From positions 224,001 to 288,000 of the forward strand of contig CBDCWP010000030.1 of assembly GCA_965223505.1 (NCBI GenBank): a stretch of DNA of 64,000 bases. Direction: 5' to 3'. Shown piece after piece: positions 1-55,512 of this stretch. Numbering within the stretch: the stretch's first letter is position 1; every line of letters starts with the position of its first letter. The stretch is from Planctomycetota bacterium (GTDB lineage Bacteria; Planctomycetota; PLA2; JAEUHO01). The notes under the pieces are model-generated. The model saw only the letters and a list, made by a program, of their open reading frames with translations. It was not told the origin of the DNA and made no database searches. The position numbers and the translations under genes were made by a program.

Positions 1-815
1 TTGATCGAGTGCAACAGCGGTTCGAGCTGATCGAGCACGATCATGTTCGGCCCGTCGGACTTCGCGTTGTCGGGGTCTTCGTGCACCTCCATGAAGAACC
101 CGTCGACGCCCACCGCGGCCGCGGCGCGCACGAGACCGGGCACCTCGGTGCGGTCGCCGCCCGACTTGTCGCCGAGCGCGCTCGGACGCTGCACGCTGTG
201 CGTGCCGTCGAAGACGACGGGATGTCCCATCGCGCGCATCATCGGAAGCGATCGGAAGTCGACGACGAGGTTGCCGTAGCCGAACGACGCGCCGCGCTCC
301 GTCAGCAACACGTCCTTGCAGCCCGACTCCTCGAGCTTCTGCACGACGGGACGCATGTTCTCCGGCGCGAGGAACTGTCCCTTCTTCACGTTCACGGCCT
401 TGCCGGTCTTCGCGGCCGCCACGAGCATGTCGGTCTGTCGGCACAGGAACGCGGGCACCTGCAGGATGTCCACGACCTCCCCCACCGCCGGCGCCTGGTC
501 GGCGCTGTGGAAGTCGGTCAGGACGCGCACGCCGGTCTCGCGGCGCACCTGCGCGAGGACGTCGAGCCCCTCGTCGATGCCGGGCCCGCGAAACGAGTGG
601 ATGCTGGTGCGGTTGGCCTTGTCGAACGACGACTTGAAGCAGTACTGGAAGCCCGCGCCTTCGGCGATCGCGCGGATGCGTTCCGCGTGACGCAGCGCCA
701 TGTCGCGACCCTCGATCACGCACGGACCCGCGATCAACAAGGGGCGCTCGCCGGGCCCCACGTTCTCGGCGCCGACGCGGCAGGGCGTGATCTGGACTTC
801 GGCGGTGGTGCTCAC
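1..815 (-). CDS. kdsA: 3-deoxy-8-phosphooctulonate (KDO-8-P) synthase, 3'-truncated by window edge
   Basis: Not in the ORF track; translated by hand. GTG at 815 overlaps the lysA TGA. Reads ...IAGPCVIE...[12 protein letters not shown]...[13 protein letters not shown]...NVKKGQF...ERGASFGY...[17 protein letters not shown], which are KdsA motifs. Confidence 0.95.
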
Positions 816-2113
816 TTCGAACTCTCCACACCCAGTTTGCGGTACGGCGCGTCGGGACGCTCACATCGAACCAGATCTTCGTAGGTCTCGCGCACGCGAA
901 CCACAGCGAACTCGGCCCCGTCCACCAGGACCTCGGGCGGCCGGCGGCGCTCGTTGTAATTGCTGGCCATCACGAAGGCGTAGGCGCCCACGCTCATGAC
1001 CGCGAGCACCTCGCCCGACGCAACCGGCGGCAGCGGCCGGTCTTGCGCCAGAAAGTCCCCGGTCTCGCAGACGGGCCCGACGATGTCGCACGGCGGCGCG
1101 TCGGCTTCTTCGCCCAGGGGCGGCGGCGCGTCGCCGGTGACCGGCCAGATGCGGTGGTAGCCCTCGTACAGGCTCGGACGAATGAGATCGTTCATGCCGG
1201 CGTCGACGATCACGAAGCGCCGGTCTCCCGACGCCTTGTTGAACAAGACGGTCGTCAGCAGCACGCCGGCGTTGCCGACGATCACGCGCCCGGGCTCCAT
1301 GATGAGCTTCAGGCCGCTCGAGCGAACGTCGTCGCGAACGGCGTCGGCGTAGTCGGCGAGGGCGGGGACGTTCTGATCGCGGTAGTAGATGCCGTAGCCG
1401 CCGCCCATGTTGAGCCACTCGATGTCGGGGATGTCTCGTCGAAGGTCGGTGGCGAGCTTGGCCGTTCGGCGCACGGCGGCTTGATACGGCTCGACGGACG
1501 AGATCTGGCTCCCGATGTGACACTGGATGCCGACGAGCCGCAGGTGCGTCGACGCGGCGATGCGTTGCGCGAGCCGGCCCGCGCGCTCGATGTCGACGCC
1601 GAACTTGGTCTCCTTCTGCCCCGTCGAGATGTAGCGGTGCGTCTTCGGGTCGACGTCGGGGTTGACACGAATGGCGACGTCGCCGCGTGTTCCGAGGCGC
1701 TTGGCGACCCGTTCGATGAGATCGAGCTCGGCTTCGCTCTCGACGTTGAACATGAGCAGCTTGGCTTCGAGGCCCGCCATGACCTCGCTCTCGGTCTTGC
1801 CGACACCGGAGAAGACGATGCGACTCGGGTCGGCGCCGGCGGCGAGAACACGTTGCAGCTCCCCCTCCGAGACGATGTCGAACCCCGTGCCGGCTTCGCG
1901 CAGGACGTTGAGCAGCGCGAGGTTGCCGTTCGCCTTGGCGGCGAAGCAGATGAGCGGATCGAGATCGCCGAACGCCTTGCGAATGCCGTCCACGTGATCG
2001 CGCACGGTGCGGGTGGAGTAGACGTACGCAGGCGTGCCGACCTCCCGCGCCAGCGCGTCGAGGGGCACGTCTTCGCACCAGAGGCGGCCGTCGTGGTGGT
2101 GGAACCGGTCCAT
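812..2113 (-). CDS. lysA: diaminopimelate decarboxylase
   Basis: [14 protein letters not shown] (PLP Lys), [26 protein letters not shown] motifs. Start taken as ATG 2113 (MDRFHH); the longer track start runs through a REP. Confidence 0.95.
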
Positions 2114-5972: not shown

Positions 5973-6764
5973 ATGGAGGCCCTGCGCGCGATTCGCGAGC
6001 TCTACGATCGTCACGAGCGGCGGCCTGTCGTCATCGACGGCATGGCGCGCGAAGAGACGAGCCGAACCCTGCGATTCGTCAACCTCGGCCGAGGTCCGGG
6101 CGTGGTGATCCACTCGAATCTCGACGAGGACAGCGCCGACGAGGCGATCGGTGCGGAGGTGGCTCGCTTCCGAGACGCCGGACAGGCGTTCGAGTGGAAG
6201 CTCCACGACTACGACGAGCCGTCTGATCTGCGACGGCGGCTGGGACGATTCGGCTTCGTTCCACAGCCGGAGGAAGTGCTCGTCGCGTTCGATCTCGACG
6301 GGCCCTTGCCGGCGACGCCGTCGGAGGTGGAAGTGCGATCCGTCGCTGACGTTGCGGGGTTGGACACAGTCCACGGCATCCGCAGCGCTGCGTTTGGTCG
6401 CGAGCAGGCGTGGCAAAGGGAGGCTCTGCGCGAGGAGTTCGCACGCGCACCGGAGGAGCTGCGCGTATTCGTCGCGTACGTCGACGGTGAGCCTGCCGCC
6501 GCCGGTTGGTCGCGTTTGCTTCCTGGCAGTCCGTTCGCCACCCTTTGGGGCGGCGGCACGGTGCCCGCTCGTCGTCGCCGGGGCGCCTACCGCGCCCTGG
6601 TGGCCCGGCGCCTTGCGGACGCGCGGCAGCGAGGGTACCGCCAGGCACTCGTCGATGCCGGGCCGGAGAGCCTGCCGATCTTGGAGCGACTGGGGTTCAT
6701 GCGCGTCGCCCGGATGACGCCGATGATGTGGCATCCGCCGGAAGCCGACGCGCAAGAAACGTAA
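5973..6764 (+). CDS. GNAT family N-acetyltransferase
   Basis: ATLWGGGTVPARRRRGAYRALV (motif A); S.PILERLGF. Confidence 0.85.
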   Translation: MEALRAIRELYDRHERRPVVIDGMAREETSRTLRFVNLGRGPGVVIHSNLDEDSADEAIGAEVARFRDAGQAFEWKLHDYDEPSDLRRRLGRFGFVPQPEEVLVAFDLDGPLPATPSEVEVRSVADVAGLDTVHGIRSAAFGREQAWQREALREEFARAPEELRVFVAYVDGEPAAAGWSRLLPGSPFATLWGGGTVPARRRRGAYRALVARRLADARQRGYRQALVDAGPESLPILERLGFMRVARMTPMMWHPPEADAQET

Positions 6765-6772
6765 CGCCGGTC

Positions 6773-6847
6773 ATGTTCTCGCGATGCGCCGCGCACGTCG
6801 AGCCGACGCCGTCGTGGCGCATACATGACGTGCAGGACTGGGCGTAA
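6773..6847 (+). repeat. shortened copy of the kinase-associated downstream element
   Basis: gtcgtggcgcatacatgacgtgcaggactgggcgtaa (6811-6847) matches the 3' ends of the copies ending at 10539 and 15128. Confidence 0.6.
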
Positions 6848-6891
6848 AGCGGGATCTTGCGCTGCGGGCGACCTCCCGGTTGACTCCCTCG

Positions 6892-9800
6892 GTGATCGGC
6901 AGCCGCGTCAGCGCCTACGAGGTCCTCTCCGAACTGGGTTCGGGCGGCATGGGGGCGGTCTACCTCGCCCGGTGCGCCGAAGCGTCGGCCGGGCTGGACG
7001 TCAGCACGCAGGTCGCGCTGAAGGTCATCCATCCGAACCTGCTGAGCCAGCCGGGGTTCTTCAAGCGCTTCCTGCGCGAGGCCCAGATCGGCCAGGACGT
7101 GCAGCACGAGAACGTCGTGCGGACCTACGACTGCGACGCGACCGACGTCGATGGCGCGGCCGCGCACTTCCTGGTCATGGAGTACGTCGAGGGCCAGACG
7201 CTGCGCGATCTCCTCGACGAGTTGGAGCGCGTCCCCGAGGAACTCTGCCGCCACGTCGGGTGCGAGGTGGCCAAGGGCTTGGCGGCGATCCACGAGGTGG
7301 GGGTCGTCCACCGCGACATCAAGCCCGAGAACGTGCTCATCACCGAGGACCACGTCGTGAAGGTGATGGACCTGGGCGTGGCGCGGCTCCAGGACGAGGC
7401 GATCCGGCTCTCGCAAACCGGGGCATTCGTGGGATCGCTGGAGTACGCCGCGCCCGAGCAGTTCCGCTCGGCCGACGGTGAGCCGGACGGACGCGCCGAC
7501 CTGCACTCCTTGGGCGTCGTGCTCTACGAGTTGGCGACGGGGCAGCATCCCTACCGCGACGAGGACGCCTCGAAGGTCCTGCGCAACATCCTCGACGTGG
7601 CGCCGAGGAAGGCGGGGGAGGTGAACCCGCAGCTATCGCCGTTCTTCGAGGAGGTCATCGGCACGCTGATCGCCAAGGACCGCGATGAACGGTTCGCCGA
7701 TGCGGCCGCCCTCGCGGCCGTGCTGGAGGAGGGCGAGCAGGGCGAGTGGTGGAAGGATCGCGCGAAGGCGCTGCGCATCGAGACGAAACGACCGCTGCGC
7801 CGCATCCGCATCCCCCGCGAGACGGCGCTCTACGGTCGCGACGACGACCTTGCCAAGCTCCAGTCACTGTACGAGAAGGCCAGGGATGGCGATGGGCAGG
7901 TCCTGCTGATCGAGGGCGAGGCGGGCATCGGCAAGACGCGGCTGGTGGACGAGTTCGTGGGGCGGCTTCGTCAGGAGGGCGAAGACCTCAACTTCCTATT
8001 CGGCTCCTACCCTCCGGGCGGCGCGGCGACGGCTTCGGGAGCCTTCTCCGAAGCGTACCGGGCGCAGTTCGGGGCGGAGGGCCTGGAGGAGACGCTCCGA
8101 GACCACCTGACCGTCACGCCCCTGCTGGTCCCCGCATTCGCCGCTCTCCTCAAGGGCGACGCGCCTCCCAAGGACGCCGAGCCCTTGACGAAGGACTCGC
8201 TCCAGACGGTGTTCGTCCACGCGACGCGCAATCTCGCCGCCGAGCGGCCGACGATCGTCTTGATCGACGACCTGCACTTCGCGCCGGAAGACGCGCGGTC
8301 GTTGTTCATGACGCTGGCGCTCGCCGTGCCGGGGCATCCGATCTTGCTCGTCGGGACGATGCGGCCGGGGGTGGACGAGACATGGATCTCGAACTTGACG
8401 AGGCTGGACCACGCCTCGCAGGCCGCGCTGCCGCGTCTCGGGCCGAAGGACTTGTCAGCGCTCCTGGAAGATGCATTCCGGTCCGAGCGACTTGCCGACG
8501 AGTTGGGCTGGAAAATCGCCCAGAGGTCCGACGGCAACCCCTTCTTCGCCTTCGAGATCATACGGGGCCTGCGCGAGGGGCAGTTCATCACGCAGCAGTC
8601 GGACGGCACCTGGGTCAGCACGCAGGTGATCCAGGACATCCAGATCCCCTCGTCGGTGCTGGACCTCGTGAGGGCACGCATCTCCGACTTGAGCCAGGGG
8701 GAGCGAGACCTGCTCGACGTGGCGTCGTGCTGCGGCTTCGAGTTCGATCCCGGGCTGCTGGCCACGGCCCTTGGCCAAGGCCGGATCCCTGTGCTCAAGG
8801 GTCTGGCGCAGATCGAGCGCGCCCATCGGCTCGTCCGGTCACGAGGTCGCAGCTTCGTTTTCGACCACCATCAGGTGCAGGAGGCGATCTACGACAGCCT
8901 GCCCGAGATGCTGCGCGAGGAGTACCACGCAGCCATCGCCGACGCGCTGGAGACGCGCGAGCAGGCCGCAGACAAGGATCCGCAGGACCTGGATGGTGCG
9001 TTGTGCGTGGACCTGTGCGAGCACTTCCTTCGAGGGGCGCAGGGGGACAAGGCTCTTCGTTATCTCGGCCCCGCCTTGAATCACTTGGAGGGAGCATATG
9101 TAAACGATCAGGCGGTCTCGCTGGTGACGCACGTCTTGGACGTCCCCGGGTTGCTGGAGGGCAGCATGCGGAGCGACACTCTGCTGCGTTTGATCTCGGT
9201 GCTCATGCGCCTCTCGCGTTACGCAGAGGCTGGAGAGGCTTGCAAGGAGGTGCTGCGCATCAGCGAGGCCCCGCGTGACCCAGCGAGAGCCGCCCAGGCT
9301 AGCGGCGAGTTGGGTTGGGCTCTCTATCGGCAGGGGCAGTACCAGGAGGCAGCCTTTAAGTTCGAGTCGGTGTTGAAGCTCGCCCGGGATCTCGGTGATC
9401 GGTCGATGGAGGCAAGGGCCGCTCTGGGTCTTGGCGGTGTGTTCGACTCCCTCGGGCAGCACATCGAGGCGCGTGCGGCTTGGGAGCGGGCCCTGGCTCT
9501 TGCCAGAGAGACTGGAGACCGGCGGACGGAGTCCGCATGCGTGACGAACATCGGCAACGCCTTCGCCGCCGAGGGGCGCAGCGCCGATGCCATCGAGCAC
9601 TACGAGATGTCGCACTCCCCGGACGATGGCCTCGAAGGCCGTTGGCGTCTCAATAGTCAGGCGATCACGCTTCACAATCGGGGAGTGGTCTTGGCGGCGC
9701 TGGGCGATCAAGAGGCGGCCGTGAGCTGTCAGGAGACGGCGATTCGAGTCAGTCGCGAGGCCGGATTCACGCACCTGACGGGCACGTCACTGATGGAGTT

Positions 9801-10296
9801 GGGACGCCTGCTGGAAGCCCGCGGCGAGCTAGAGGAGGCCGCCCGTACGCATGCTGATGGGATCCAGGTGCTCGCGGGGGTCGTGCGTGATGAGTTCGCC
9901 GCCTTGGGGCACCTCGCGTATGGGGTCCTTCTGGGACGCCTGGGCCACGAGGCCGAGGGGCGCGCCCACCTACGAGAATCGCTCGCTGTGGCTTCAGAGG
10001 CAGGAGCGCCAGGGGTGCGACTCCTCGCACTTCTCCAGCTGGAGCGTCTGGGTGAGTGTGAGGCCGAGCGTGTGCTAGCTGCCTTCGAAGAGGACAAGGA
10101 CCGCCTTCACCACGACGTGAAGCGAGAGGTCCTGCTGCTCCTCTACGACATGACGGGTGAGCGCCGGTACCTAGAGGATGCCCATCGACATCTCATGTTC
10201 TTCGTCGAGCACGCGCCCGCGCAGTACCGCGAGACCACGCTCACCAACGTCAGACTGCACCGCGAGATCATGGAGGCGTGGGACGAGCAGCAATAG
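6892..10296 (+). CDS. Ser/Thr protein kinase - AAA+/STAND-type ATPase - TPR protein (paralog 1)
   Basis: GSGGMG, VALK, HRDIKPEN, DLG, APE kinase motifs; Walker A GEAGIGKT, Walker B IVLIDDLH; GNPFF; C-terminal TPR-like repeats. GTG start chosen by alignment with paralog 2. Confidence 0.9.
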   Translation: MIGSRVSAYEVLSELGSGGMGAVYLARCAEASAGLDVSTQVALKVIHPNLLSQPGFFKRFLREAQIGQDVQHENVVRTYDCDATDVDGAAAHFLVMEYVEGQTLRDLLDELERVPEELCRHVGCEVAKGLAAIHEVGVVHRDIKPENVLITEDHVVKVMDLGVARLQDEAIRLSQTGAFVGSLEYAAPEQFRSADGEPDGRADLHSLGVVLYELATGQHPYRDEDASKVLRNILDVAPRKAGEVNPQLSPFFEEVIGTLIAKDRDERFADAAALAAVLEEGEQGEWWKDRAKALRIETKRPLRRIRIPRETALYGRDDDLAKLQSLYEKARDGDGQVLLIEGEAGIGKTRLVDEFVGRLRQEGEDLNFLFGSYPPGGAATASGAFSEAYRAQFGAEGLEETLRDHLTVTPLLVPAFAALLKGDAPPKDAEPLTKDSLQTVFVHATRNLAAERPTIVLIDDLHFAPEDARSLFMTLALAVPGHPILLVGTMRPGVDETWISNLTRLDHASQAALPRLGPKDLSALLEDAFRSERLADELGWKIAQRSDGNPFFAFEIIRGLREGQFITQQSDGTWVSTQVIQDIQIPSSVLDLVRARISDLSQGERDLLDVASCCGFEFDPGLLATALGQGRIPVLKGLAQIERAHRLVRSRGRSFVFDHHQVQEAIYDSLPEMLREEYHAAIADALETREQAADKDPQDLDGALCVDLCEHFLRGAQGDKALRYLGPALNHLEGAYVNDQAVSLVTHVLDVPGLLEGSMRSDTLLRLISVLMRLSRYAEAGEACKEVLRISEAPRDPARAAQASGELGWALYRQGQYQEAAFKFESVLKLARDLGDRSMEARAALGLGGVFDSLGQHIEARAAWERALALARETGDRRTESACVTNIGNAFAAEGRSADAIEHYEMSHSPDDGLEGRWRLNSQAITLHNRGVVLAALGDQEAAVSCQETAIRVSREAGFTHLTGTSLMELGRLLEARGELEEAARTHADGIQVLAGVVRDEFAALGHLAYGVLLGRLGHEAEGRAHLRESLAVASEAGAPGVRLLALLQLERLGECEAERVLAAFEEDKDRLHHDVKREVLLLLYDMTGERRYLEDAHRHLMFFVEHAPAQYRETTLTNVRLHREIMEAWDEQQ

Positions 10297-10539
10297 GCGG
10301 CCTCGCTGGCGCACCTGAATATTCTCTCGATGCGTTCGTCGGGACGCGGCTAGAGCACGCCGCATGGCGTGCCGAAGCGCCGCAACGCCCGAGTTCTTCG
10401 GCGTTGCGATGCACCCCCGTACGCGGGGGTGCAAGGGGGTGCATCGAACCCGCAGATCGCACTACTACCCGACGTTTCGGGCTCCGAGAGCATCACCTCG
10501 TCATCGTGGCGCATCCATGACGTGGGAGAGTGGGCGTGA
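10297..10539 (+). repeat. ~240-nt element repeated downstream of each kinase gene (decayed small gene or structured element)
   Basis: Shares blocks tcgtcgggacgcggc, agttcttcggcgttgcgatgcacccc, gcaaggggg.gcatcg and tcgtcatcgYggcgcatccaYgacgt with 14769-15128; contains several hairpins. Confidence 0.75.
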
Positions 10540-10989
10540 CTACTCGACGTCCTCACCGAGCGTACGAAGGTCGATGAGATCCTGCGGGCGTCCCGTGGCC
10601 CGCTTGTTGCGGATCAGGTCATGCCGGGAAATCACGTGGATGGGGCAGTCGCCGTACTGCGACTCGACACGCTCCGGCCACGATTCATGGAACTCGAGGC
10701 CTGTAACACCCATCAAGATGTCGATGCGGTTCGGGGGAACACCGATCTGGTACACCATTTCTTGGTTTGCGAGATCCTCAACCGTGACTTCGGAGACCGG
10801 CGCGCCGAACGAAGTCAGCGCCCGGTGCACTCGTGCGGCGTTCTCCGCCGATGCCTCGACCCAGATGTCGAGATCCTTGGTGAAGCGAGGCTGAGCGTGG
10901 AACGTGACCGCGTAGGCCCCGACCACGAGGTAGCGGACCTTAGCGGCGTTGAATGCGAGCAGTAGATCTCTGAAGTCGGGGTTGATCAC
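10540..10989 (-). CDS. nucleotidyltransferase-fold protein (DUF6036-like / minimal NTase)
   Basis: VRYLVVGAYAV..HAQPRFTKDLDIWV (G-A/G...DxD), C-terminal LIRNKRATGRPQDLIDL. Confidence 0.8.
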   Translation of the reverse strand: MINPDFRDLLLAFNAAKVRYLVVGAYAVTFHAQPRFTKDLDIWVEASAENAARVHRALTSFGAPVSEVTVEDLANQEMVYQIGVPPNRIDILMGVTGLEFHESWPERVESQYGDCPIHVISRHDLIRNKRATGRPQDLIDLRTLGEDVE

Positions 10990-11149
10990 CGTCGGCTCCC
11001 TGCCACACGCGGGCTTCCAGCACCATCTCCCACATGGCCTCCATGCGTCTCTCCGGAGCCACGCTACGCCAGAAGGCCGCGTCGAACGCCTGCTCGTCCT
11101 CTCCCTGGCGGACCAGACTCCCAGTTATGACGCGATCGCCAGACACCAT
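10940..11149 (-). CDS. small protein overlapping the nucleotidyltransferase start (putative antitoxin/partner)
   Basis: 69 aa, DAAFWRSVAPERRMEAMWEM...PRLQRS; TACAAT -10 box 6 nt before the ATG; 50-nt overlap with the NTase gene. Confidence 0.65.
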   Translation of the reverse strand: MVSGDRVITGSLVRQGEDEQAFDAAFWRSVAPERRMEAMWEMVLEARVWQGADGDQPRLQRSTARIQRR

Positions 11150-11255
11150 GGGCGCATTGTACCGGCCACTGGGGCCGTCCACGCGTCGGAAGACGCTGTG
11201 TCTCCGCGTGTGCGGGCCGCTTGCGCTGACAGGCCGTTCCCGCTTCACTCGTTCC

Positions 11256-14200
11256 GTGATCGGCAGCCGCATCAGCGCCTACGAGGTCCTCTCCGAGCTG
11301 GGTTCGGGTGGCATGGGGTCCGTCTATCTGGCGAGGTGCGCCGAGGAGGCGGCGGCGCTGGACGCTGGCGTCCAGGTCGCCCTCAAGGTCATCCATCCGA
11401 ACCTCCTGAGCCAGCCGGGCTTCTTCAAGCGCTTCCTGCGCGAGGCCCAGATCGGGCAGGAGGTGCAGCACGAGAACGTCGTGCGGACCTACGACTGCGA
11501 CGCGACCGACGTCGATGGCGCGGCGGCGCACTTCCTCGTCATGGAGTACGTCGAGGGCCAGACGCTGCGCGATCTCCTCGACGAGTTGGAGCGCGTCCCG
11601 GAGGAGCTCTGCCGCCACATCGGTCGCGAGGTGGCCAAGGGCTTGGCGGCGATCCACGAAGCGGGCGTCGTCCACCGCGACATCAAGCCCGAGAACGTGC
11701 TGATCACCGAGGGGCACGTCGTCAAGGTGATGGACCTGGGCGTCGCCCGCCTCCAGGACGAGGCGATCCGGCTCTCCCAGGCGGGCGCGTTCGTGGGCTC
11801 GTTGGAGTACGCGGCGCCCGAACAATTCCGTTCCGCCGATGCCGAGCCCGATGGCCGCGCCGATCTGCACTCGCTCGGCGTCGTGCTCTACGAGTTGGCC
11901 ACGGGGCAGCATCCCTACCGGGACGAGGACATCTCGAAGGTCATGCGGAACATCCTCGACGAGGAGCCGCGCAAGGCAGGGGAGATCAACCCGCAGCTAT
12001 CGCCATTCTTCGAGGAAGTGATCGGCACCCTCATCGCCAAGGAGCGCGATGCTCGCTTCGCCGATGCGGCCACCCTCGCGGGCGTGCTGGAAGAGGGCGA
12101 GGGCGGCGAGTGGTGGAAGGCGCGCGCCAAGGCGCTGCGCGTCGAGACGAAGCGTCCGCTCCGGCGGATCCGCATCCCGCGCGAGACGGCGCTCTACGGC
12201 CGCGACGACGACCTCGCGAAGCTCCACGCACTGTTCGACAACGCGAAGGCGGGGAACGGTCAAGTGCTCTTGATCGAAGGCGAAGCGGGCATCGGCAAGA
12301 CGCGCCTCGTGGACGAGTTCGTCGGGCGGCTGCGGCAAGAGGGCGAGGACATCAACTTCCTCTTCGGCAGCTACCCGCCGGGCGGAGCGGCGACGGCGGC
12401 GGGAGCCTTCTCCGAGGCGTACCGCGAGCAGTTCGGCGAGGAGGGCGCGGCACCCTGGCTTTCGCAGACGCCGATCCTGGTTCCCGCCTTCGACGCGCTG
12501 CTTCGCGGGGAGCCCGCGCCCAAGGACGCGGAGGCTCTCACGAAGGACTCGCTCGGGACGGTGTTCGTGCACGCGACGCGCAACCTCGCCGCCGAGCGGC
12601 CGACCATCGTGCTCATCGACGACCTCCACTTCGCGCCCGAGGATGCGCGGGCGTTGTTCTTGACGCTGGCCCTGGCTGCGCCCGGACATCCGATCCTGCT
12701 CGTGGGGACCATGCGCCCCGGTGTGGACGAAGAGTGGATCTCCCACGTGGCGCGGCTGGATCAGGCGTCGCACACGGGCCTGTTGCGATTGGGGCCGAAG
12801 GACCTGTTCAAGCTCCTCAAGGACTCGTTCCGTTCTGACCGCCTCGCTGAGGAACTGGGCATGCAGATCAGCGTGAAGTCCGACGGCAACCCGTTCTTCG
12901 CCTTCGAGATCATTCGGGGCCTGCGTGAGGGGCAGTTCATCACGCAGCAACTTGACGGAACCTGGGCTAGCACCCAGGTGGTCGAGGAGATCCAGATCCC
13001 GTCGTCGCTATTGGATCTCGTGAACGCGCGCGTTGCGGGCCTGTCCGAAGCAGAGCGCGATCTTCTCGATGTCGCCTGCTGCTGCGGGTTCGAGTTCGAT
13101 CCTGGCCTGATCGGGGACGTGCTGGGCCTGCGGCGCATTCCGCTGCTCAAGCGGTTCGGGCAGATCGAACGGGCGCATCGCCTCGTGCGCTCATCGGGGC
13201 GCAACTACGTCTTTGATCACCATCAAGTGCAAGAGGCTCTCTACGGCAGTCTGCACGAGCAGATGCGCGAGGAGTACCACGCCGCCATCGCCGACGCCTT
13301 GGAGGCTCGCGCGAACGCCGACGACAAGGACCCGAAGGACTTGGATGGCGCGTTGTGCGTAGACCTGTGTGAGCACTTCCTGAAGGGAGCGCAGGGAAAG
13401 TCTGCCCTCCGCTATCTCGACGCGGCGCTCACGCATCTGGAGGTGAGCTACCTAAACGAAAGCGCCATCAAACTCGCCGAGCGCGCTCTCGCGTCTCCCA
13501 GTCTGTTGGAGGGCGACCGGCGCTTCGATGTACTTTACCGAGAGAACGGAGTACTGGGCCGCCTGGGGCGCCGGGATGCGCAAGCAGAGGTTCTTGCTGA
13601 TGCGCTAGCTCTCGCCAACGGCTCGGGGAACCAGGGCGCTTCCGTGAAAGCGGAACAGGCCATGGCGTATCTGCTGGAGAGGACCGGCCGCTACGAGCTT
13701 GCGCTTCCGCACGCTCGACGGGCACTCGACATTGCCCGTGCCACCGATGATCGCAGGGGCGAGATAGGTGCGATCATCGTCGAGGGGTTAGTGCGGTACG
13801 CCCAGGGAATGTACTCGGAGGCCATCGCACAGTTCGAGCACGCACTATTGATCGCGCTGCAGATCGATGATCTCCTGGCCGAGGCCAGTGTGCGCCACAA
13901 CCTGGGGAACCCCTTGGCGAGCCTCGGGCGCATCGACGAGGCATGGGTGCACTTTAGTCGTGCGGCAGAATTGTATGAGGAGGTGGGTGACCTGCTGGCC
14001 CGGGGCAACATCGCGAACAATCTCGGACTAGTTTTGGTACTCAGAGGCCGACTTCGAGAAGCGGAATCCTGCTACGAGCGCGCTCTTGCCTACAAGCAGG
14101 CAGCGGGCGATCGTGCTTCCGAGTCCGTGACCATCGGAAACTTGGGGCAGTTGCAGTTGATGTACGGGAGCACGGACCATGCGCGGGTCGCTTGTGAGCG

Positions 14201-14768
14201 TGCGCTGACACTCGCTGAGCAATCTGGTGCACTACATGCAAGATGCGAGAGCCTCCATGCGCTTGGCATGGTGGCAGCGCAGGCTGGTGAACTTGTGCAA
14301 GCACGTGGCTGGTACGAACAGGCGTCGTCCGTTCGAAACGACGCTGGCTCGCTTCAAGGCGAAGCGGAGACTCTCTTGGCGCTTGGAGAGTGCCTGCTTC
14401 AGGAGGGACACCGCGAGCGAAGTGACGCGCTGATGGAGGCAGCCTTGGCGTTGGCAAGGGAGACGGGTGCGCGAGGCGCGGAGGTCGAAGCGGCCTGCCA
14501 CCTGGCGCTGCGACCCGGCGGGGACGTCGATGAGGCGTTGGCGTGTTTTGATGCGAGGCATGATGCGCTGGCACACCGTGAAAGGATGAGGGCGCGCTAC
14601 CTGTTGTTCAAGGCGACAGGCAGGCGCGAACACCTTGCCGAGGCCCGGCGCCTCCTGAACTACTTCGTAGAGCACGCCCCTGCGGAGCATCGCGAGTCGA
14701 TGTTGACCAACGTGCGCCTGCACCGCGAGATCATGGAGGCATGGGAGGCGCATCAGGCGGCCTCGTAG
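11256..14768 (+). CDS. Ser/Thr protein kinase - AAA+/STAND-type ATPase - TPR protein (paralog 2)
   Basis: Same motifs as 6892-10296. Homology starts at GTGATCGGCAGCCGC, so the track start at 11034 is over-extended. Confidence 0.9.
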   Translation: MIGSRISAYEVLSELGSGGMGSVYLARCAEEAAALDAGVQVALKVIHPNLLSQPGFFKRFLREAQIGQEVQHENVVRTYDCDATDVDGAAAHFLVMEYVEGQTLRDLLDELERVPEELCRHIGREVAKGLAAIHEAGVVHRDIKPENVLITEGHVVKVMDLGVARLQDEAIRLSQAGAFVGSLEYAAPEQFRSADAEPDGRADLHSLGVVLYELATGQHPYRDEDISKVMRNILDEEPRKAGEINPQLSPFFEEVIGTLIAKERDARFADAATLAGVLEEGEGGEWWKARAKALRVETKRPLRRIRIPRETALYGRDDDLAKLHALFDNAKAGNGQVLLIEGEAGIGKTRLVDEFVGRLRQEGEDINFLFGSYPPGGAATAAGAFSEAYREQFGEEGAAPWLSQTPILVPAFDALLRGEPAPKDAEALTKDSLGTVFVHATRNLAAERPTIVLIDDLHFAPEDARALFLTLALAAPGHPILLVGTMRPGVDEEWISHVARLDQASHTGLLRLGPKDLFKLLKDSFRSDRLAEELGMQISVKSDGNPFFAFEIIRGLREGQFITQQLDGTWASTQVVEEIQIPSSLLDLVNARVAGLSEAERDLLDVACCCGFEFDPGLIGDVLGLRRIPLLKRFGQIERAHRLVRSSGRNYVFDHHQVQEALYGSLHEQMREEYHAAIADALEARANADDKDPKDLDGALCVDLCEHFLKGAQGKSALRYLDAALTHLEVSYLNESAIKLAERALASPSLLEGDRRFDVLYRENGVLGRLGRRDAQAEVLADALALANGSGNQGASVKAEQAMAYLLERTGRYELALPHARRALDIARATDDRRGEIGAIIVEGLVRYAQGMYSEAIAQFEHALLIALQIDDLLAEASVRHNLGNPLASLGRIDEAWVHFSRAAELYEEVGDLLARGNIANNLGLVLVLRGRLREAESCYERALAYKQAAGDRASESVTIGNLGQLQLMYGSTDHARVACERALTLAEQSGALHARCESLHALGMVAAQAGELVQARGWYEQASSVRNDAGSLQGEAETLLALGECLLQEGHRERSDALMEAALALARETGARGAEVEAACHLALRPGGDVDEALACFDARHDALAHRERMRARYLLFKATGRREHLAEARRLLNYFVEHAPAEHRESMLTNVRLHREIMEAWEAHQAAS

Positions 14769-15128
14769 GCGCCCCGAACATTCGTGAGATGCCCTCGTCG
14801 AGCCGCGACAGTGAGATCGACCACATCTGCTTTGATCAGACAGGTGCGTACATTCCTCTGGGTGGCTAGCTCATGCGCAAGGCTTGATGGTTTGATCGCC
14901 GGGGGGCGGCGGCAGGATACGCTCGTCGGGACGCGGCAGGGGAATGCGGCTTGGCATGCGGAGGCGGCGTAGTGCCTCTAGTTCTTCGGCGTTGCGATGC
15001 ACCCCGTGTCCCCGGGGGAGCAAGGGGGAGCATCGCAGACACAGGCCAACGAATTGCGCCACGATCTGGGCTCCACGGGCGCCACGTCGTCATCGCGGCG
15101 CATCCACGACGTCGAGGACGGGGCGTAG
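14769..15128 (+). repeat. second full copy of the kinase-downstream element, with a ~105-nt insert
   Basis: Homologous to 10297-10539; the gatgccctcgtcgagccgcgac / gatacgctcgtcgggacgcggc near-duplication flanks the insert. Confidence 0.7.
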
Positions 15129-15159
15129 ATCGGTGTCAGGACGACACCCGGCCCGCGCG

Positions 15160-15365
15160 CTTGAGTACGGGTCACTCCAAGGATGGCGACGCCGACCTCC
15201 AGCAACAGGTAGATCACGAGTGTCACGCTGGGTCGGCCGTCGACGACGAGGCTCAGTACGCGACCTGCCGCGAGACCCGTCATCAAGAAAACGACGGAGA
15301 GCACGGCGGCTCGCGCCCAAGGGGGGCCGAACGCGGCCATCAGCCAGTAGAGCGACAGGCTCCCC
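15160..15365 (-). pseudogene. C-terminal fragment of a DUF4345-like membrane protein
   Basis: LYWLMAAFGPPWARAAVLSVVFLMTGLAAGRVLSLVVDGRPS..LLLE resembles the DUF4345 C-half; the N-terminus is absent. Ends are approximate. Confidence 0.55.
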
Positions 15366-15431
15366 CCGCGAGCAGCAGGCAGAATCTGGTGAACGTCAAG
15401 TCAGTCCTCGTTCTTCCCGCGGGCGTCTTGG

Positions 15432-15527
15432 GTCGAGCACGCGCCGGAGACGTATCGCCTCACCACGCTCACGAACGTCAGGCTCCACCGTGAGATCACG
15501 GATGCGTGGATCGCGTTGCGCGACTGA
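15432..15527 (+). pseudogene. orphan C-terminal tail of a third kinase-ATPase-TPR paralog
   Basis: Translates VEHAPETYRLTTLTNVRLHREITDAWIALRD*, versus VEHAPAQYRETTLTNVRLHREIMEAW (paralog 1) and VEHAPAEHRESMLTNVRLHREIMEAW (paralog 2). Confidence 0.85.
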
Positions 15528-15542
15528 GCGACGCGCGGCGTC

Positions 15543-17174
15543 CTAGTTCTCGACGACCTCTTCCATGCTCGGCATCGTCTCTTGATGCGCGAGCGCCGCC
15601 ACGATGAACTCGCGGAACAACGGGTGCGGCCTCGTCGGCTTGCTCTTGAACTCGGGATGGAACTGCACACCCACGAAGTACGGATGCTCGGGTAGCTCCA
15701 CGATCTCGACCAGATCGCGCTCCGGGTTCGTCCCGCCGATCAGCATGCCCGATTCGACCAATCGATCGCGGTACTCGTTGTTGAACTCGTACCGGTGACG
15801 ATGGCGCTCCTGCACCGTCTCGTCGTCGTACGCCGCGCGTGACTTCGATCCGGCACGAAGCGCACAGACGTACGCACCCAGACGCATGGTGCCGCCCTTC
15901 TCGAGTCCCTTCTGATCCGGCATCAGGTCGATCACCGGATGCGGCGTGTGCTCGTCGAACTCCGTGCTGTGCGCACCTTCGAGCCCCGCCACGTTGCGCG
16001 CGTACTCGATCACGGCGCACTGCATGCCGAGACACAGCCCCAGGAACGGCACCCCGTTCTCGCGCGCCCAGCGGATGGCCTCGACCTTGCCCTCGATGCC
16101 GCGCTCGCCGAACCCGCCCGGCACCACGATGCCGTGCACCCCGCCCAGGCGCTGCGCCGCGTTCTCCGCCGTGATGTCCTCGGCCTGTACCCGCCGCACC
16201 CGCACCTTCGACTCCGCGTGGAAGCCCGAGTGCGCGATCGCCTCGTACACGCTCTTGTACGCGTCGGTCAGCTCGATGTACTTGCCGACCAGCGCGACCT
16301 CGACCTGTCGTTTGGGGTTGCGAATGCGCTCGAGCAACGCGTGATAGGCGTCGAGCTGCAGTTCACCCATCGGCAATCCCAGCCGCTCCGTGATCAGCCG
16401 GTCCAGGCCCTGCTCCGCCAACATCTGGGGCACCTCGTAGATGCTCGTCGGCACGTCTTGCTCTTCCACGACGCAGTCCACCGGCACGTTGCAGAACAAC
16501 GAGAGCTTCGAACGAATCTCCTGTGTCAGCGGACGCTCCGTACGACAGATCAACACATCGGGCTGGATGCCGATCTCGCGCAGCTTCATCACCGAGTGCT
16601 GGCTCGGCTTCGACTTGAGCTCGCCACTGGCCCGCAGGTACGGGATCAACGTGAGGTGGCAGACCATCGCGTTTTCGCGGCCCACGTCGAGGATGAACTG
16701 ACGAATCGCCTCGAGGAACGGCTGGCTCTCGATGTCACCCGCCGTGCCGCCGAGCTCGCAGATCAGCACCTCGGCGTCGCCGGCGCCGGCGCGGATGCCC
16801 TGCTTGATCTCGTTCGTGACGTGCGGGATGACCTGGACCGTCTTGCCCAGGTAGTCGCCGCGCCGCTCCTTCTGGATGATGCTCGCGTAGATCTTGCCGG
16901 TCGTGTAGTTGCTGTCCTTCGTCAGGACCGCGCCCTCGGTGAAGCGCTCGTAGTGGCCCAGGTCGAGATCGGTCTCGGCGCCGTCCTCGGTGACGTAGAC
17001 CTCGCCGTGCTGATAGGGCGACATCGTCCCCGGATCGACGTTGAGGTACGGGTCCAGCTTCTGGTGCTGGACGCGGACGCCGCGGCCCTCGAGAAGGAGT
17101 CCGATCGACGCGCTCGTGAGTCCTTTGCCGAGGCTCGAGGCCACGCCCCCGGTCACGAAGATGTACTTCGTCAC
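15543..17174 (-). CDS. pyrG: CTP synthase
   Basis: [58 protein letters not shown]. Confidence 0.98.
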
Positions 17175-43005: not shown

Positions 43006-43700
43006 AGGTTCGCCGGCTTCATCCGTTCGACATGCCGCCGAAGGACGGCGTACGCCTGCAGCGCTGGCTGGCGTCGCAGGTGGAACCGCGGGGCCGCTTC
43101 CGCCGCAAGCTGCGCCACGTCGCGGCCGCCGACTGCTCGCCGTCGCCCGACGGCACCGTGCACGCGGCGGTCGTGTTGTGTGAAGCGCCCGACTGGGAGG
43201 TGGTCGAAGAAGCCCATGCGTCCGCCAAGCCGCTCATGCCGTACGTGCCGGGACTGCTCTCCTTCCGCGAGGCGCCGGTCGTGCTGGACGCGCTGCGCCG
43301 GCTGAAGACGACGCCGGACGTCCTGTTGGTCGACGGTCACGGACTCGCGCACCCGCGGCGAATGGGCATCGCGACCCACGTCGGGCTCCACATCGACGTG
43401 CCGACGATCGGTGTCGGGAAGAGCCGGCTCACCGGCGCCCACGACGAGCCCGGCCGCCGGTTCGGGCAGTGGGAGCCGCTCACGGACGACGGCGCGCGCA
43501 TCGGCGCGGTCCTGCGCACGCGCGACGACGTGAAGCCGGTCTACGTGAGTGTCGGCAACCGGATCGGACTGCTCCCGGCCGTTCGCATCGTGCTGAGCAC
43601 GGTTCGGCGCTACCGGATTCCCGAGCCGATTCGGCACGCGGATCGCCGCAGCCGCGCTCGTGCGCGAGGCCGGAACCGGGCGAAGGCGGATCGAATGTAG
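43002..43700 (+). CDS. nfi: endonuclease V (deoxyinosine 3' endonuclease)
   Basis: PYVPGLLSFRE, VDGHGLAHPRRMGIATH, GVGKSRL, KPVYVSVG, RIPEPIRHAD. Confidence 0.95.
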   Translation: MKVRRLHPFDMPPKDGVRLQRWLASQVEPRGRFRRKLRHVAAADCSPSPDGTVHAAVVLCEAPDWEVVEEAHASAKPLMPYVPGLLSFREAPVVLDALRRLKTTPDVLLVDGHGLAHPRRMGIATHVGLHIDVPTIGVGKSRLTGAHDEPGRRFGQWEPLTDDGARIGAVLRTRDDVKPVYVSVGNRIGLLPAVRIVLSTVRRYRIPEPIRHADRRSRARARGRNRAKADRM

Positions 43701-43839
43701 CGGACACGCGACAGGAGTGTGGCGGCACGGGCACACCCGCGGACGACAAAGGCGTCCGGTCGGCGACGGAGTACGCAACACTGACTGGCGGGCGACGGGG
43801 GTTTGTCGCACGCCGAATGACCTCATAGGTTGGTGGGCC

Positions 43840-45669: not shown

Positions 45670-45761
45670 GGCAGCCGTTCAGGCTGCCTAACGCGGAGCG
45701 CGTACGTCTCTAGTGGGCCCTGGCCTTGCGGTACCTGTAGGGGCAGCCCTTGTGACTGCCC
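45666..45761. repeat. REP-like copies
   Basis: gtagggcagccgttcaggctgcct (from 45666, includes the SBP stop) and GTAGGGGCAGCCCTTGTGACTGCCC (45737-45761). Confidence 0.7.
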
Positions 45762-46158
45762 AAATGGCCGTCACAACCGTCTACGCGCTGCCTGAATCTC
45801 TGGTTCCGCTGCCGACTTCGTCGGCGGGCGTCTTAACTCCTGTGCTGTTTAAGGCTCCCCCGCTTCCACCCCCTCCTCCTCCCCCTCCCGGGTGGCCACC
45901 TCCCGTGTGGCCCCCTAGCACCTCGGTTTCCCTTGGCTGTTTCTGGCCATGCAAGTGCCGCCGACGCCTACCCTGCTCGAAGGCATGAACAGGCTCGTCG
46001 CAGAGCAGCTGGGAAAGCGCGAAGGTGAGAAGGTAGAGGCGAAGAAGAAGAGCTGGAAGCGCGCCGATCCTCTAAAGGAGTTCATTGGAAAGGTCGCGAA
46101 TGTCCTGCGCACTGGGATCTCGACAGTCTCAGCTATCTTGGGGCCCGCGACACTTCGC

Positions 46159-47533: not shown

Positions 47534-47744
47534 CACTTCGCTGAGTGCAGTTGGAACTTCAAGAAGACGATGGAGCACATCCGCAGCATGGCAGAGACTC
47601 TGGTTGCCGCAGCCGCAGCGTGCGGTTCGGACGAGTGGGGCACCGCCCCGTCACAAGAAGGACTCCGTGAATTGCCGGAACTTGCCAACGCATTCGGTGA
47701 GGCCGCCGGGATCACTGCACCTGACATGATGCCCGGCAGGTAGT

Positions 47745-50715: not shown

Positions 50716-50716
50716 C

Positions 50717-52657: not shown

Positions 52658-52702
52658 GACCGGGGACCATACGGATTGCCCGCGCGCGGAGCAACCGCGC
52701 GA

Positions 52703-55491: not shown

Positions 55492-55512
55492 GGGGGTTGC
55501 TCGCGGCTCTCG

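Follow-up and report, generated by a model that had tools for sequence, protein, structure and literature searches.

Tandem planctomycete STAND Ser/Thr kinases with similar signaling parts and strongly diverged TPR blocks

Two neighboring genes in a planctomycete contig encode proteins that resemble each other closely at both ends and poorly in the TPR region between, which raises the question of how the ends have stayed alike while the middle has diverged. The window referred to below is the whole 64-kb stretch of DNA that was analyzed.

Architecture and Surroundings of the Two Genes

The gene lengths given in Table 1 rest on GTG starts at 6892 and 11256, whereas the public call for gene 2 starts at ATG 11148 and gives 1206 amino acids. 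Gene 1 encodes, in order, a Hanks Ser/Thr kinase, a STAND NTPase composed of a NOD and an arm, a TPR solenoid, and a tail, and the same architecture is found for gene 2 by Pfam and alignment. The Pkinase domain is placed by Pfam at residues 9-269 in gene 1 (E 1.6e-45) and 9-268 in gene 2 (E 3.2e-46), with AAA_16 above its cut-off at 313-486 (E 4.5e-20) and 313-482 (E 8.5e-19), respectively. The repeat region is matched by TPR_12 and TPR_MalT at 763-1032 in gene 1, the TPR_MalT score of 32.9 bits being under its Pfam cut-off of 45 bits, and by five stretches of TPR_12 in gene 2. Both genes encode the kinase motifs GSGGMG, VALKV, HRDIKPEN, DLG, and AAPE, and in the alignment each also shows a Walker A (GEAGIGKT) and a Walker B (LIDDLH) motif. 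In 82 aligned proteins including both genes, K44, D142, N147, and D160 of the kinase never vary, nor do G342, G345, and G347 of Walker A (G342-K348) or D460 and H462 of Walker B, and K348 is kept in at least 90%.

The AF2 model of gene 1 (pLDDT 89.6) has an order of secondary structural elements that fits an NBD, a helical domain, a winged helix, an arm, and a repeat sensor. Foldseek matches the kinase fold to PknB (TMt 0.92) and finds 6mfv_A, a STAND protein whose sensor consists of TPRs, with an E value of 3.8e-14 over 795 columns, the low TM scores of this match (0.24 and 0.34) being expected when several domains are superposed. An effector-STAND-TPR architecture had been proposed in an earlier note on this DNA, and it holds by the Pfam assignments, the order of elements in the model, and the Foldseek matches. 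No transmembrane segment was found in the two proteins, the maximum KD(19) of 1.66-1.77 falling within an NBD strand. Both are soluble Hanks-kinase/AAA_16 STAND/TPR proteins of the PknK/MalT-like kind.

Gene 1 and gene 2, arranged in tandem, are paralogues from a very large family of STAND Ser/Thr kinases that is mainly planctomycete, with thousands of members mostly from Planctomycetota MAGs (6874 of the 8000 scored candidates pass E <= 0.001). A search of genome contigs gave 75 family loci, 18 of them in one MAG, and at least two long same-strand copies lie within about 20 kb at 7 of 74 loci. Genes close to the pair encode a decarboxylase, a sigma factor, a class II tRNA synthetase, DinB, GNAT, pyrG, kdsB, and a SurA-like protein; farther away are a mutase, a carboxyltransferase, a photolyase, peptide ABC transporters, and a fumarase. 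The 64-kb window holds housekeeping and transport genes, and neither a defense island, integrase, or transposase nor a gene for FHA, PP2C, or another evident partner was found in it.

The last ~45 nucleotides of the gene 1 leader are common to gene 2 and to L001, a homologue from another genome, in a three-way alignment. Downstream of each gene lies a copy of a non-coding element (E1 and E2). E1 contains two G+C-rich hairpins that E2 has not kept, the fold z is -4.9 for the E1 core and -1.3 for the E2 core, and no match to E1 was found in Rfam. The 149-amino acid ORF between the kinase genes is outside the repeat unit; its Pfam match to DUF6036 (E 9.4e-05, 22.7 bits) is under the cut-off of 23.6, and homologues with 49-50% identity occur near family kinases at two other loci (L004 and L031). 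The DUF4345 gene fragment spans profile positions 61-116 of 119 (E 4.6e-08, Pfam).

Table 1. Coordinates of features at the tandem kinase locus
Feature	Position	Strand	Remarks
Upstream leader, gene 1	6814..6891	+	Conserved; blastn match to L001 extends to 6814
Gene 1	6892..10296	+	1134 aa from GTG 6892; alternative TTG 6880
Tract of highest gene 1/gene 2 identity (kinase domain)	7012..7371	+	92-97% nucleotide identity, columns 41-160
Partner of this tract in gene 2	11376-11735
Divergent TPR block, gene 1	9067..10197	+	aa 726-1102, GC3 0.748
Conserved tail, gene 1	10198..10293	+	FFVEHAP...HREIMEAWDEQQ
Non-coding element E1, downstream of gene 1	10329..10523	+	75% identical to E2 (blastn)
149-aa ORF between kinase genes	10540..10989	-	Weak DUF6036 nucleotidyltransferase match
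Upstream leader, gene 2	11206..11255	+	Resembles gene 1 and L001 leaders (blastn, alignment)
Gene 2	11256..14768	+	1170 aa from GTG 11256
Divergent TPR block, gene 2	13419..14660	+	aa 722-1135, GC3 0.693
Conserved tail, gene 2	14661..14765	+	From alignment and family tail profile
Non-coding element E2, downstream of gene 2	14916..15112	+	Copy of E1
DUF4345 gene fragment	15173..15340	-	Between E2 and orphan tail
Orphan third tail copy	15429..15527	+	WVEHAPETYRLTTLTNVRLHREITDAW...stop

Conserved Ends and a Diverged TPR Block

The two genes align by blastn from 6856-9044 against 11220-13396 with 82.7% identity over 2198 nucleotides, and no DNA match was found by blastn across their TPR blocks. 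In the codon alignment the kinase and STAND-ATPase region (columns 1-725, termed the N part) is 84.0% identical in protein and 82.2% in nucleotide sequence, compared with 32-33% and 44.2% for the TPR block. Both alignments confirm the coordinates of the paralogues and the alternation of high identity, divergence, and high identity that had been read from the letters. The decoupling of N part and TPR block in this pair is extreme: for 88 family pairs with an N-part identity of 0.80-0.85 the median TPR identity is 0.55, whereas gene 1 and gene 2 have 0.32.

The tails are 72.7-77% identical in protein and 77.8% in nucleotide sequence (blastn aligns 10200-10324 with 14663-14783 at 80%), so that the reconvergence after the TPR block reported earlier is borne out. 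In the AF2 model the TPR solenoid ends in two helices made up by the tail, and a profile of the tail matches 113 of 118 family proteins. The tail is a conserved two-helix C-terminal cap and a family-wide motif, and this distribution attributes its conservation to selection on the protein and argues against a dedicated recombination anchor, the role given to it before. The orphan third copy is 82% identical in DNA to 10204-10281 (blastn) and 78% over 27 amino acids (tblastn), ends 15 nucleotides before the pyrG stop, and accounts for the span of the earlier note reaching to 15527. It is what remains, next to pyrG, of the 3' end of a family gene that has been lost, and its presence shows that the locus has been rearranged.

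At the amino acid level, identity declines gradually over ~50 residues past ALRYL, with 48% in columns 721-780. Synonymous sites behave differently, codon identity at identical residues being 0.28 within columns 718-1145 (n = 127) and 0.69 outside (n = 614). These columns are the ones picked by a two-breakpoint scan (chi2 72), a value attained in 0 of 200 permutations; with four-fold sites alone the left break shifts to column 605, and the left TPR boundary is therefore known to ~100 codons. Both change-points (718 or 605, and 1145) coincide with the TPR borders, although the poor alignment of the TPR blocks affects them. Counted at the four-fold sites of identical residues, identity reaches 0.73 for the kinase, 0.52 for the NTPase part, and 0.22 for the TPR block against composition expectations of 0.47, 0.39, and 0.30, the apparent saturation in the TPR block being partly an alignment effect of chance or out-of-register matches at 33% identity. 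The mosaic at synonymous sites is real. Divergence along the genes is non-uniform in the codon alignment, at four-fold sites, and in the breakpoint scan; of the sharp divergence described before, the step survives at synonymous sites and gives way to gradual borders in the amino acid sequence.

The TPR region also has more A/T-ending codons, as had been noticed by eye, with GC3 falling from 0.90 and 0.88 in the N parts of gene 1 and gene 2 to 0.75 and 0.69. Neither TPR value reaches even the lowest figure (0.751) among 91 control windows, each 1098 nucleotides long, taken from 23 other genes of the 64-kb window (mean 0.905, S.D. 0.036). The dip relative to the N part is -0.15 in gene 1, -0.19 in gene 2, and -0.14 in the L001 gene; the family median is -0.024, with 40 of 53 family genes having a lower GC3 in the TPR block. 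In a set of 54 family genes, the size of the GC3 drop and the uniqueness of the TPR block are only weakly correlated (rho 0.23, p 0.09). At GC1 and GC2 the TPR blocks have the same values as the N parts. The GC3 dip stays outside what the best explanation accounts for.

A three-way comparison of gene 1, gene 2, and L001 shows how relationships change along the N part. In columns 81-160 the informative sites group gene 1 and gene 2 together (33 versus 6 and 7), whereas they favor gene 2 with L001 in columns 401-480 (36 versus 13 and 12) and gene 1 with L001 in columns 481-640 (88 versus 26 and 24), a heterogeneity with chi2 112.1 (df 16, p 1.8e-16). The closest relative thus switches along the N part, and the copies therefore recombine in the conserved part; with a single outside sequence, this mosaic does not extend to the genome or timing of the exchanges. 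The tract of highest identity between the two genes, together with its partner, is a candidate for recent gene conversion. Incongruence between N-part and TPR trees, suggested earlier as a check, is found with an AU p value of 0.008 for "quick" LG+G4 trees with long branches and poorly alignable TPR blocks. End branches measure 1.1-1.9 in the TPR tree versus 0.1 in the N tree, and the TPR placement of P0008 is congruent with its wider N-part clade.

Origin of the TPR Divergence

The probable explanation, held with moderate confidence, is that these are tandem STAND kinases in which the N part, tail, and flanks are kept alike by selection and exchange, and the TPR blocks have diverged outside the exchanged tracts. 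Purifying selection and repeated homologous exchange among family copies, by either gene conversion or recombination, keep the kinase-NOD part, tail, and short flanks alike. The TPR blocks lie outside the exchange tracts and have synonymous saturation, very long branches, and no close relative; either fast in-place change or replacement by a foreign block is behind their divergence.

A specific form of replacement, in which gene 1, gene 2, and the L001 gene took over their TPR blocks from family members of lower-GC organisms by recombining in the conserved parts, with amelioration of the blocks now under way, is rather unlikely. It draws on the GC3 of 0.69-0.75 in these blocks versus 0.83-0.90 in the three corresponding N parts, set beside the small family median, on the long TPR end branches, and on the existence of family genes with a GC3 of 0.73-0.79 throughout (e.g. 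L043). It needs three independent imports with every source unsampled, however, neither of the large protein collections yielded a donor-like block, and GC1 and GC2 are the same as in the N part.

The earlier note had read the genes as NLR/Avs-like immune or conflict receptors with a kinase output, in which the N part and tail anchor the swapping of TPR cassettes, and this we consider improbable. The domain order, the extreme decoupling, the synonymous breakpoints at both TPR borders, the tree incongruence, and the demonstrable recombination in the conserved part all agree with such a reading; the low TPR GC3 could mark imported DNA, the orphan tail shows that breakage occurred there, and kinase-based defenses (PD-T4-6, mad6, and MkoA) exist in PADLOC. 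Against it, neither TPR block occurs in any second protein. In a collection of 5.8 billion proteins no relative of either block above 37-38% identity and no shared or donor cassette was found, and the best non-self TPR identity in a representative library is 39%. The recombination that had been invoked is accordingly retained as a mosaic within the conserved part, and the exchange of TPR modules is not. Full-length PADLOC matches all lie within residues 1-302 (best 25 of 35 families), and the NOD-TPR part gives generic TPR matches and, for gene 2 only, Avs2 with E 0.0092 and 12 bits. The neighbors are housekeeping genes, and an immune or conflict role is unsupported; the tail, kept as expected of a protein motif, and the gradual amino acid borders also speak against this reading.

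Plain differential constraint, with one old tandem duplication, parts of equal age, and faster TPR drift without recombination, fits the family-wide tendency of the TPR block to diverge faster than the N part (always so by medians), its generally lower GC3, the conserved tail, and the gradual borders, but is very improbable in view of the four-fold-site step, the changing nearest relative along the N part, the 75% identity of downstream non-coding DNA versus 44% for TPR DNA, and the position of this 44% at or below neutral decay (~57%; Jukes-Cantor, N-part dS 0.63).

Relation to Known Systems and Proposed Signaling

PMC4381067 counts PknK among the STAND kinases and sets out how arm and sensor work as a switch in MalT. 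The N-terminal Hanks kinase, AAA_16 NOD, helical arm, and C-terminal TPR/MalT-like sensor are shared with this branch, the likeness to PknK being drawn from domain order and from the description in that text; the present family differs in its own C-terminal motif and its massive lineage-specific expansion. Planctomycetota have lineage-specific expansions of Ser/Thr kinases that carry TPR or WD40 arrays, as described in PMC11032199, where "duplication and/or recombination" is proposed from Pkinase trees. Those kinases are likewise planctomycete proteins with C-terminal TPR arrays and lineage-specific expansion, but are described there as mostly membrane-spanning with periplasmic repeats, whereas gene 1 and gene 2 are soluble; the main text of that paper has 0 occurrences of "AAA," and gene 1 and gene 2 have a STAND NTPase between kinase and TPR. 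With both accounts in print, the suggestion of an undescribed system is not upheld.

Antiviral STAND proteins of the Avs/NLR-like type also combine an effector, a STAND NTPase, and a TPR-like sensor that is far more variable. The NTPase of gene 1 and gene 2 is AAA_16, a type not listed for Avs, a kinase takes the place of a nuclease or protease as output, Avs models give only a 12-bit P-loop match, and the 64 kb around the genes has no defense-island context. The ATPase-TPR part of TIGR03903 (TOMM kinase/cyclase fusion), profile positions 463-940 of 1267, can be aligned with gene 1 over residues 294-771 (E 2.3e-69). Assignment as a TOMM fusion was rejected, the scores being 234.4 and 209.7 bits versus a curated cut-off of 705.75, with the cyclase domain absent by Pfam and TOMM genes absent nearby.

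Eukaryotic NLR families of fungi and plants have a conserved NOD and hypervariable repeat sensors. The present family resembles them in being a large tandem family with a conserved signaling part, hyper-divergent repeats, and paralogue exchange; no evidence of near-identical internal repeats, allelic polymorphism, or an immune phenotype was seen for gene 1 and gene 2. Variable TPR/WD sensors of fungal incompatibility NLRs are mentioned in PMC10907252.

By analogy with MalT and other STAND proteins, the arm and TPR would keep the ADP-bound NOD closed in the resting state. Binding of a protein or small-molecule ligand to the arm-TPR surface would open the NOD, and the exchange of ADP for ATP would lead to multimerization. 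The N-terminal kinases may thereby be brought together for trans-autophosphorylation and phosphorylation of downstream targets. With its own TPR block each paralogue may read a different ligand and deliver an identical kinase output. In this pair the signaling parts have been kept alike while the sensor parts grew unrecognizably different, leaving a sensor that is unusually decoupled.

Architecture and family of the paired kinases

The tandem paralogues gene 1 and gene 2 encode proteins with an identical order of Pfam domains, in which a kinase and a STAND ATPase (together the N part, ending at an ALRYL border) are followed by a divergent TPR block, the sensor, and a conserved C-terminal tail. 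The GTG starts of both genes were picked by alignment with the starts of homologues; the public call for gene 2 begins at ATG 11148 (1206 aa), and the extra N terminus is absent from gene 1. The kinase motifs GSGGMG, VALK, HRDIKPEN, DLG and AAPE and the Walker A (GEAGIGKT) and Walker B (LIDDLH) motifs are intact in both proteins, their residues being nearly all invariant in 82 aligned family proteins with the Walker A lysine at least 90% conserved.

Features of the gene pair and its surroundings (nucleotide positions in the window unless residues or a locus are named)
Feature	Position	Strand	Details
Gene 1, long ORF	6880/6892-10296	+	1134 aa from GTG
Gene 2, long ORF	11034/11256-14768	+	1170 aa from GTG
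Pkinase	residues 9-269		Pfam E 1.6e-45 (gene 1), 3.2e-46 (gene 2)
AAA_16	residues 313-486		Pfam E 4.5e-20 (gene 1), 8.5e-19 (gene 2)
TPR_12, TPR_1, TPR_2, sub-threshold TPR_MalT	residues ~760-1030		Pfam
Kinase fold	gene 1 residues 1-298		AlphaFold2 model
Alpha/beta NBD, helical and winged-helix parts	gene 1 residues 317 to ~660		AlphaFold2 model
Helical arm	gene 1, up to residue ~734		AlphaFold2 model
TPR solenoid	gene 1, up to residue 1133		23 helices, AlphaFold2 model
TPR block, gene 1	9067-10197	+	TPR-minus-N GC3 difference -0.150
TPR block, gene 2	13419-14660	+	TPR-minus-N GC3 difference -0.189
Leader of gene 1, gene 2 and L001 gene	6814-6891; 11206-11255; L001 9923-10000		three-way alignment
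Elements E1 and E2	10329-10523; 14916-15112		~195 nt, non-coding, downstream, 75% identity (blastn)
DUF6036-like nucleotidyltransferase ORF	10540-10989	-	149 aa, match under Pfam cut-off
ORF overlapping the DUF6036-like ORF	10940-11272	-	110 aa, no family match
DUF4345 fragment	15173-15340	-	C-terminal half only, profile positions 61-116 of 119
Orphan third tail	15429-15527	+	32 codons (blastn)

The AlphaFold2 model of gene 1, built on the 82-protein family alignment, has a mean pLDDT of 89.6 and a pTM of 0.65. Foldseek matches it in the PDB to the PknB kinase domain (TMt 0.92) and, over 795 columns with an E value of 3.8e-14, to 6mfv_A, a "STAND protein with a tetratricopeptide repeat sensor", for which the TM scores are low as in any multi-domain superposition. 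A PDB sequence search with gene 1 residues 287-1134 gives no match for the NOD, all 24 matches being TPR proteins (LGN/Pins and designed TPRs). No NCBIfam model reaches its curated cut-off for either protein; the TOMM kinase/cyclase fusion family matches the NOD best, yet at 234 bits compared with a cut-off of 705.75. Neither protein has a transmembrane-like segment, and the two products are soluble STAND Ser/Thr kinases.

The whole-protein search yields at least 6874 relatives at E ≤ 0.001 (6874 of 8000 candidates scored), and the best non-self matches among those scored are 50-66% identical, the named ones being "Planctomycetota bacterium" kinase/TPR proteins. A pattern scan of genome contigs other than those of the window's own genome matched 142 stretches, of which 97 encode a relative, with 75 distinct loci kept. 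Nearly all of these are in Planctomycetota or Planctomycetia MAGs, with five labeled Candidatus Eisenbacteria and one labeled Gemmatimonadales, and one MAG supplies 18 loci. Two or three long same-strand copies lie within ~20 kb in 7 of the 74 loci having a long N-part match. Within the expanded planctomycete kinome, gene 1 and gene 2 belong to the PknK/MalT-like STAND kinases, an architecture that is already known. Passages of PMC11032199 report that Ser/Thr kinases carrying TPR or WD40 arrays have expanded in Planctomycetota and propose duplication and/or recombination from Pkinase trees; the kinases treated there are mostly membrane-spanning and the term AAA is absent from the main text (the supplements may list the architecture), whereas gene 1 and gene 2 encode soluble proteins with a STAND NTPase.

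Divergence along the gene pair

The uneven divergence recorded in the earlier note is borne out by comparison of identity and GC3 along the two genes. Blastn aligns 6856-9044 with 11220-13396 at 82.7% DNA identity, gives no match across the TPR blocks, and aligns the tails (10200-10324 with 14663-14783) at 80%. In the codon alignment the protein and nucleotide identities are 84.0% and 82.2% for the N part (columns 1-725), 32.8% and 44.2% for the TPR block, and 72.7% and 77.8% for the tail. The corresponding GC3 values for gene 1 and gene 2 are 0.90 and 0.88 in the N part, 0.75 and 0.69 in the TPR block and 0.94 and 0.85 in the tail, in a window of ~67% G+C.

Weaker constraint on the TPR block is rejected as the sole account of this pattern because synonymous identity itself drops there. 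At four-fold sites, compared only in codons with an identical residue in both genes, identity is 0.73 in the kinase (n 140, composition expectation 0.47), 0.52 in the NTPase part (n 192, expectation 0.39) and 0.22 in the TPR block (n 76, expectation 0.30). The baseline for amino-acid-specific codon preference comes from distant family members, in which the excess over expectation is ~0.05-0.27 for the N part and ~0-0.13 for the TPR block. When two breakpoints are fitted to codon identity at residues shared by both genes, columns 718-1145 are selected, with identity of 0.28 inside (n=127), a value pushed toward its floor because some identical residues in a repeat alignment of 33% identity match by chance or out of register, compared with 0.69 outside (n=614; χ2 72.0, 0/200 permutations). 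Four-fold sites alone place the segment at columns 605-1153 (0.29 compared with 0.64, χ2 45.4, 0/200 permutations). Independent of misalignment, the non-coding DNA past the tail is 75% identical compared with 44% for the TPR DNA.

Both TPR-block GC3 values are below the minimum of 91 same-length control windows (mean 0.905, S.D. 0.036, minimum 0.751) drawn from 23 other genes in the window, and GC1 and GC2 show no difference between the N part and the TPR block. In 53 family genes with DNA the median TPR-minus-N difference is -0.024, with the TPR block lower in 40, and gene 2 and gene 1 are the two extremes. The L001 gene, a relative in another MAG left out of this set as a duplicate of its own protein entry P0012, has a difference of -0.138. 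A similar value (-0.145) is seen in an unrelated family gene at locus L047. The dip is compatible with blocks imported from lower-GC relatives or with relaxed codon-usage selection in fast-changing DNA; several family genes with equally unique TPR blocks show no dip. Biased gene conversion, by which low GC3 would follow from few recombination partners, is rejected with a correlation between the dip and TPR uniqueness of only 0.23 (Spearman, p 0.09, n 54). None of the explanations considered fully fits the dip of the gene 1, gene 2 and L001 blocks.

The return of similarity in the tail had been read as a recombination anchor, and this is unsupported. The consensus ...L(D)x(V)EHAPEExRESMLxNVRLHREIxxAW occupies the ~45 C-terminal residues of nearly every homologue listed, and in the gene 1 model the tail makes up the final two helices of the solenoid. 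At E ≤ 1e-3 the tail profile matches 113 of 118 family proteins, including 33 of the 38 outside its training set, and the five misses (P0033, P0050, P0084, P0087 and P0101) have truncated or aberrant C termini. The conservation of the tail calls for no recombination argument.

Separate histories of the N part and the TPR block

For comparison across the family, 167 complete proteins were split at the ALRYL border and the tail and the parts aligned pairwise, TPR identity being computed for 2183 of 13,861 pairs (all 683 with N identity ≥0.72 and 1500 random pairs). TPR identity climbs with N-part identity, from a median of 0.36 at N identities of 0.4-0.55 to 0.48 at 0.70-0.75 and 0.55 at 0.80-0.85 (n=88, range 0.289-0.802). 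Gene 1 and gene 2, with identities of 0.840 (N), 0.323 (TPR) and 0.767 (tail), have sensors among the most decoupled of the 2183 pairs examined. Equally low TPR identity occurs elsewhere only in the pairs gene 1-P0012 (N 0.854, TPR 0.275), gene 1-P0008 (0.849, 0.289) and gene 2-P0012 (0.835, 0.316), all from one small clade, and other co-located pairs (N 0.44-0.85, TPR 0.34-0.61) are none as decoupled. The gene 1 N part is thus equally near to gene 2, its tandem neighbor, and to P0012, which another genome encodes, with DNA identities of 83.7% to L001 and 82.7% to gene 2.

The earlier proposal that the genes are mosaics and that their conserved DNA recombines holds, and in the N part the nearest relative switches along the sequence. 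In a three-way codon alignment of the N part, sites at which exactly two of the three sequences agree number 183 for gene 1 and gene 2, 202 for gene 1 and L001 and 170 for gene 2 and L001, and they are strongly clustered. Columns 81-160 favor gene 1 with gene 2 (33 compared with 6 and 7, at 92-97% nucleotide identity), columns 401-480 favor gene 2 with L001 (36 compared with 13 and 12) and columns 481-640 favor gene 1 with L001 (88 compared with 26 and 24), the heterogeneity over nine bins being significant (χ2 112.1, df 16, p 1.8e-16). Three different nearest-neighbor relations along 2.2 kb are a hallmark of exchange between copies of the family, by gene conversion or recombination; the mosaic rests on one outside sequence, from which the timing and host genome of the exchanges are not readable.

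Trees of the two parts, "quick" LG+G4 trees of the same 40 proteins, disagree. The N-part tree places gene 2 with gene 1, P0008 and P0012 in a tight clade with end branches of ~0.1 and P0032 as its sister (SH-aLRT 99 for the group including P0032). In the TPR-block tree the four are scattered, and keeping their blocks together costs 70.8 log-likelihood units (AU p 0.008), a test and a placement weakened by long branches (end branches of 1.37 for gene 1, 1.11 for gene 2 and 1.87 for P0012). The P0008 block is 57% identical to that of P0009 and is placed in the wider clade that holds the P0008 N part, so that it looks vertically inherited.

The swapping of TPR cassettes that the earlier note envisaged is not visible in large protein collections, where no shared or donor cassette is found for either gene. 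The best non-self identity is 37% for gene 1 residues 740-1100 in a collection of 5.8 billion proteins (8000 scored, at least 143 of them at E ≤ 0.001) and 39% for the gene 2 block (722-1135) among 1.84 billion representatives. Because a shared block might escape notice among representatives clustered at 50% whole-protein identity, the search was repeated on the collection of 5.8 billion proteins, clustered at 90%, with a best value of 38% for gene 2 residues 735-1130. The word index may miss relatives under ~40-50% identity and would not miss a shared cassette. A diversity-generating retroelement, considered from passages of PMC10907252, gains no support from blastn, which finds no template-like repeat of the TPR blocks in the window.

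Locus organization and meaning for the family

The repeat unit consists of a ~45-nt leader, the gene and a trailer of ~230 nt. The ~45 nt 5' of the start (CTTGCGCTG...TCCCGGTTGACTC) are common to gene 1, gene 2 and the L001 homologue and may serve as a leader or promoter of all three or belong to the converted tract. E1 contains two strong G+C-rich hairpins (z -4.9), degraded in E2 (z -1.3). Element E is no known RNA, with 0 Rfam matches at E ≤ 1 across 6000-16000, and a conserved structured RNA is rejected with the hairpins not retained in E2. Wedged between the two genes are the DUF6036-like and 110-aa ORFs, possibly a small mobile or toxin-antitoxin-like pair. Homologues of the former (49-50% identity) lie 0.3-3 kb from family kinases in L031 and L004, and it is the only one of 12 neighboring proteins with matches in the 75 related loci. 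There is thus no conserved synteny that would establish gene 1 and the L001 gene as orthologues. On the 3' side of the second unit, the opposite-strand DUF4345 fragment, which is consistent with a rearrangement, precedes the orphan tail, which is nearer to the gene 1 tail (82% in nucleotides) than to that of gene 2 and stops 15 nt short of the stop codon of the convergent pyrG. At least one further family gene once ended at 15527 and was lost save for its last 32 codons.

The neighbors of the pair encode a PLP decarboxylase, a sigma-70 factor, a class II tRNA synthetase, DinB-like, GNAT and SurA-like proteins, pyrG and kdsB. The remaining 44 kb holds, among others, enzymes (pseudouridine synthase, methylmalonyl-CoA mutase, carboxyltransferase, photolyase, LytB and fumarase), a hybrid histidine kinase and peptide ABC transporters. 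The peptide-type transporter genes are repeated in 43597-57258, where three SBP_bac_5 binding proteins occur along with four permease ORFs, of which adjacent ones overlap and have provisional starts. No integrases, transposases or known defence genes are present among the window's genes.

An immune function, also raised in the earlier note, is unsupported. PADLOC matches 35 families per full protein, of which the best 25 all fall within residues 1-302 (PD-T4-6, mad6, MkoA and a "kinase" model), and the NOD-TPR part alone matches only generic TPR models and, for gene 2 and marginally, Avs2 (E 0.0092, 12 bits). A defence role is supported by nothing beyond the architecture and contradicted by no result. 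Passages of PMC10907252 and PMC7159879 deal with conflict systems of multicellular bacteria that include STAND and kinase components, and do not describe the architecture of gene 1 and gene 2. The mechanism proposed for the pair is modeled on the NOD-arm-sensor switch described in passages of PMC4381067. It is improbable that the family is a bacterial counterpart of eukaryotic NLR repertoires. As such it would comprise dozens of kinase-output STAND receptors per genome with a signaling chassis kept uniform by conversion and TPR sensors diversified or replaced via flank crossovers for changing non-self (phage, prey or non-kin cells). The low-GC3 TPR blocks of gene 1, gene 2 and L001, which lack close relatives, would then be the newest sensors.

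Because the architecture is known, the value of the pair is in its evolutionary pattern, with signaling and sensor parts having separate histories in one tandem pair and the conserved part a patchwork of exchange among paralogues. Large receptor repertoires with a common output and diverse inputs are generally studied in the NLRs of plants and fungi. If the TPR blocks do not vary between strains, the genes would add two members to the expanded planctomycete kinome and would mainly caution against reading "effector-STAND-TPR" as immune by default. If they do vary, the family would offer a tractable bacterial model of repertoires with a common output and diversifying inputs.
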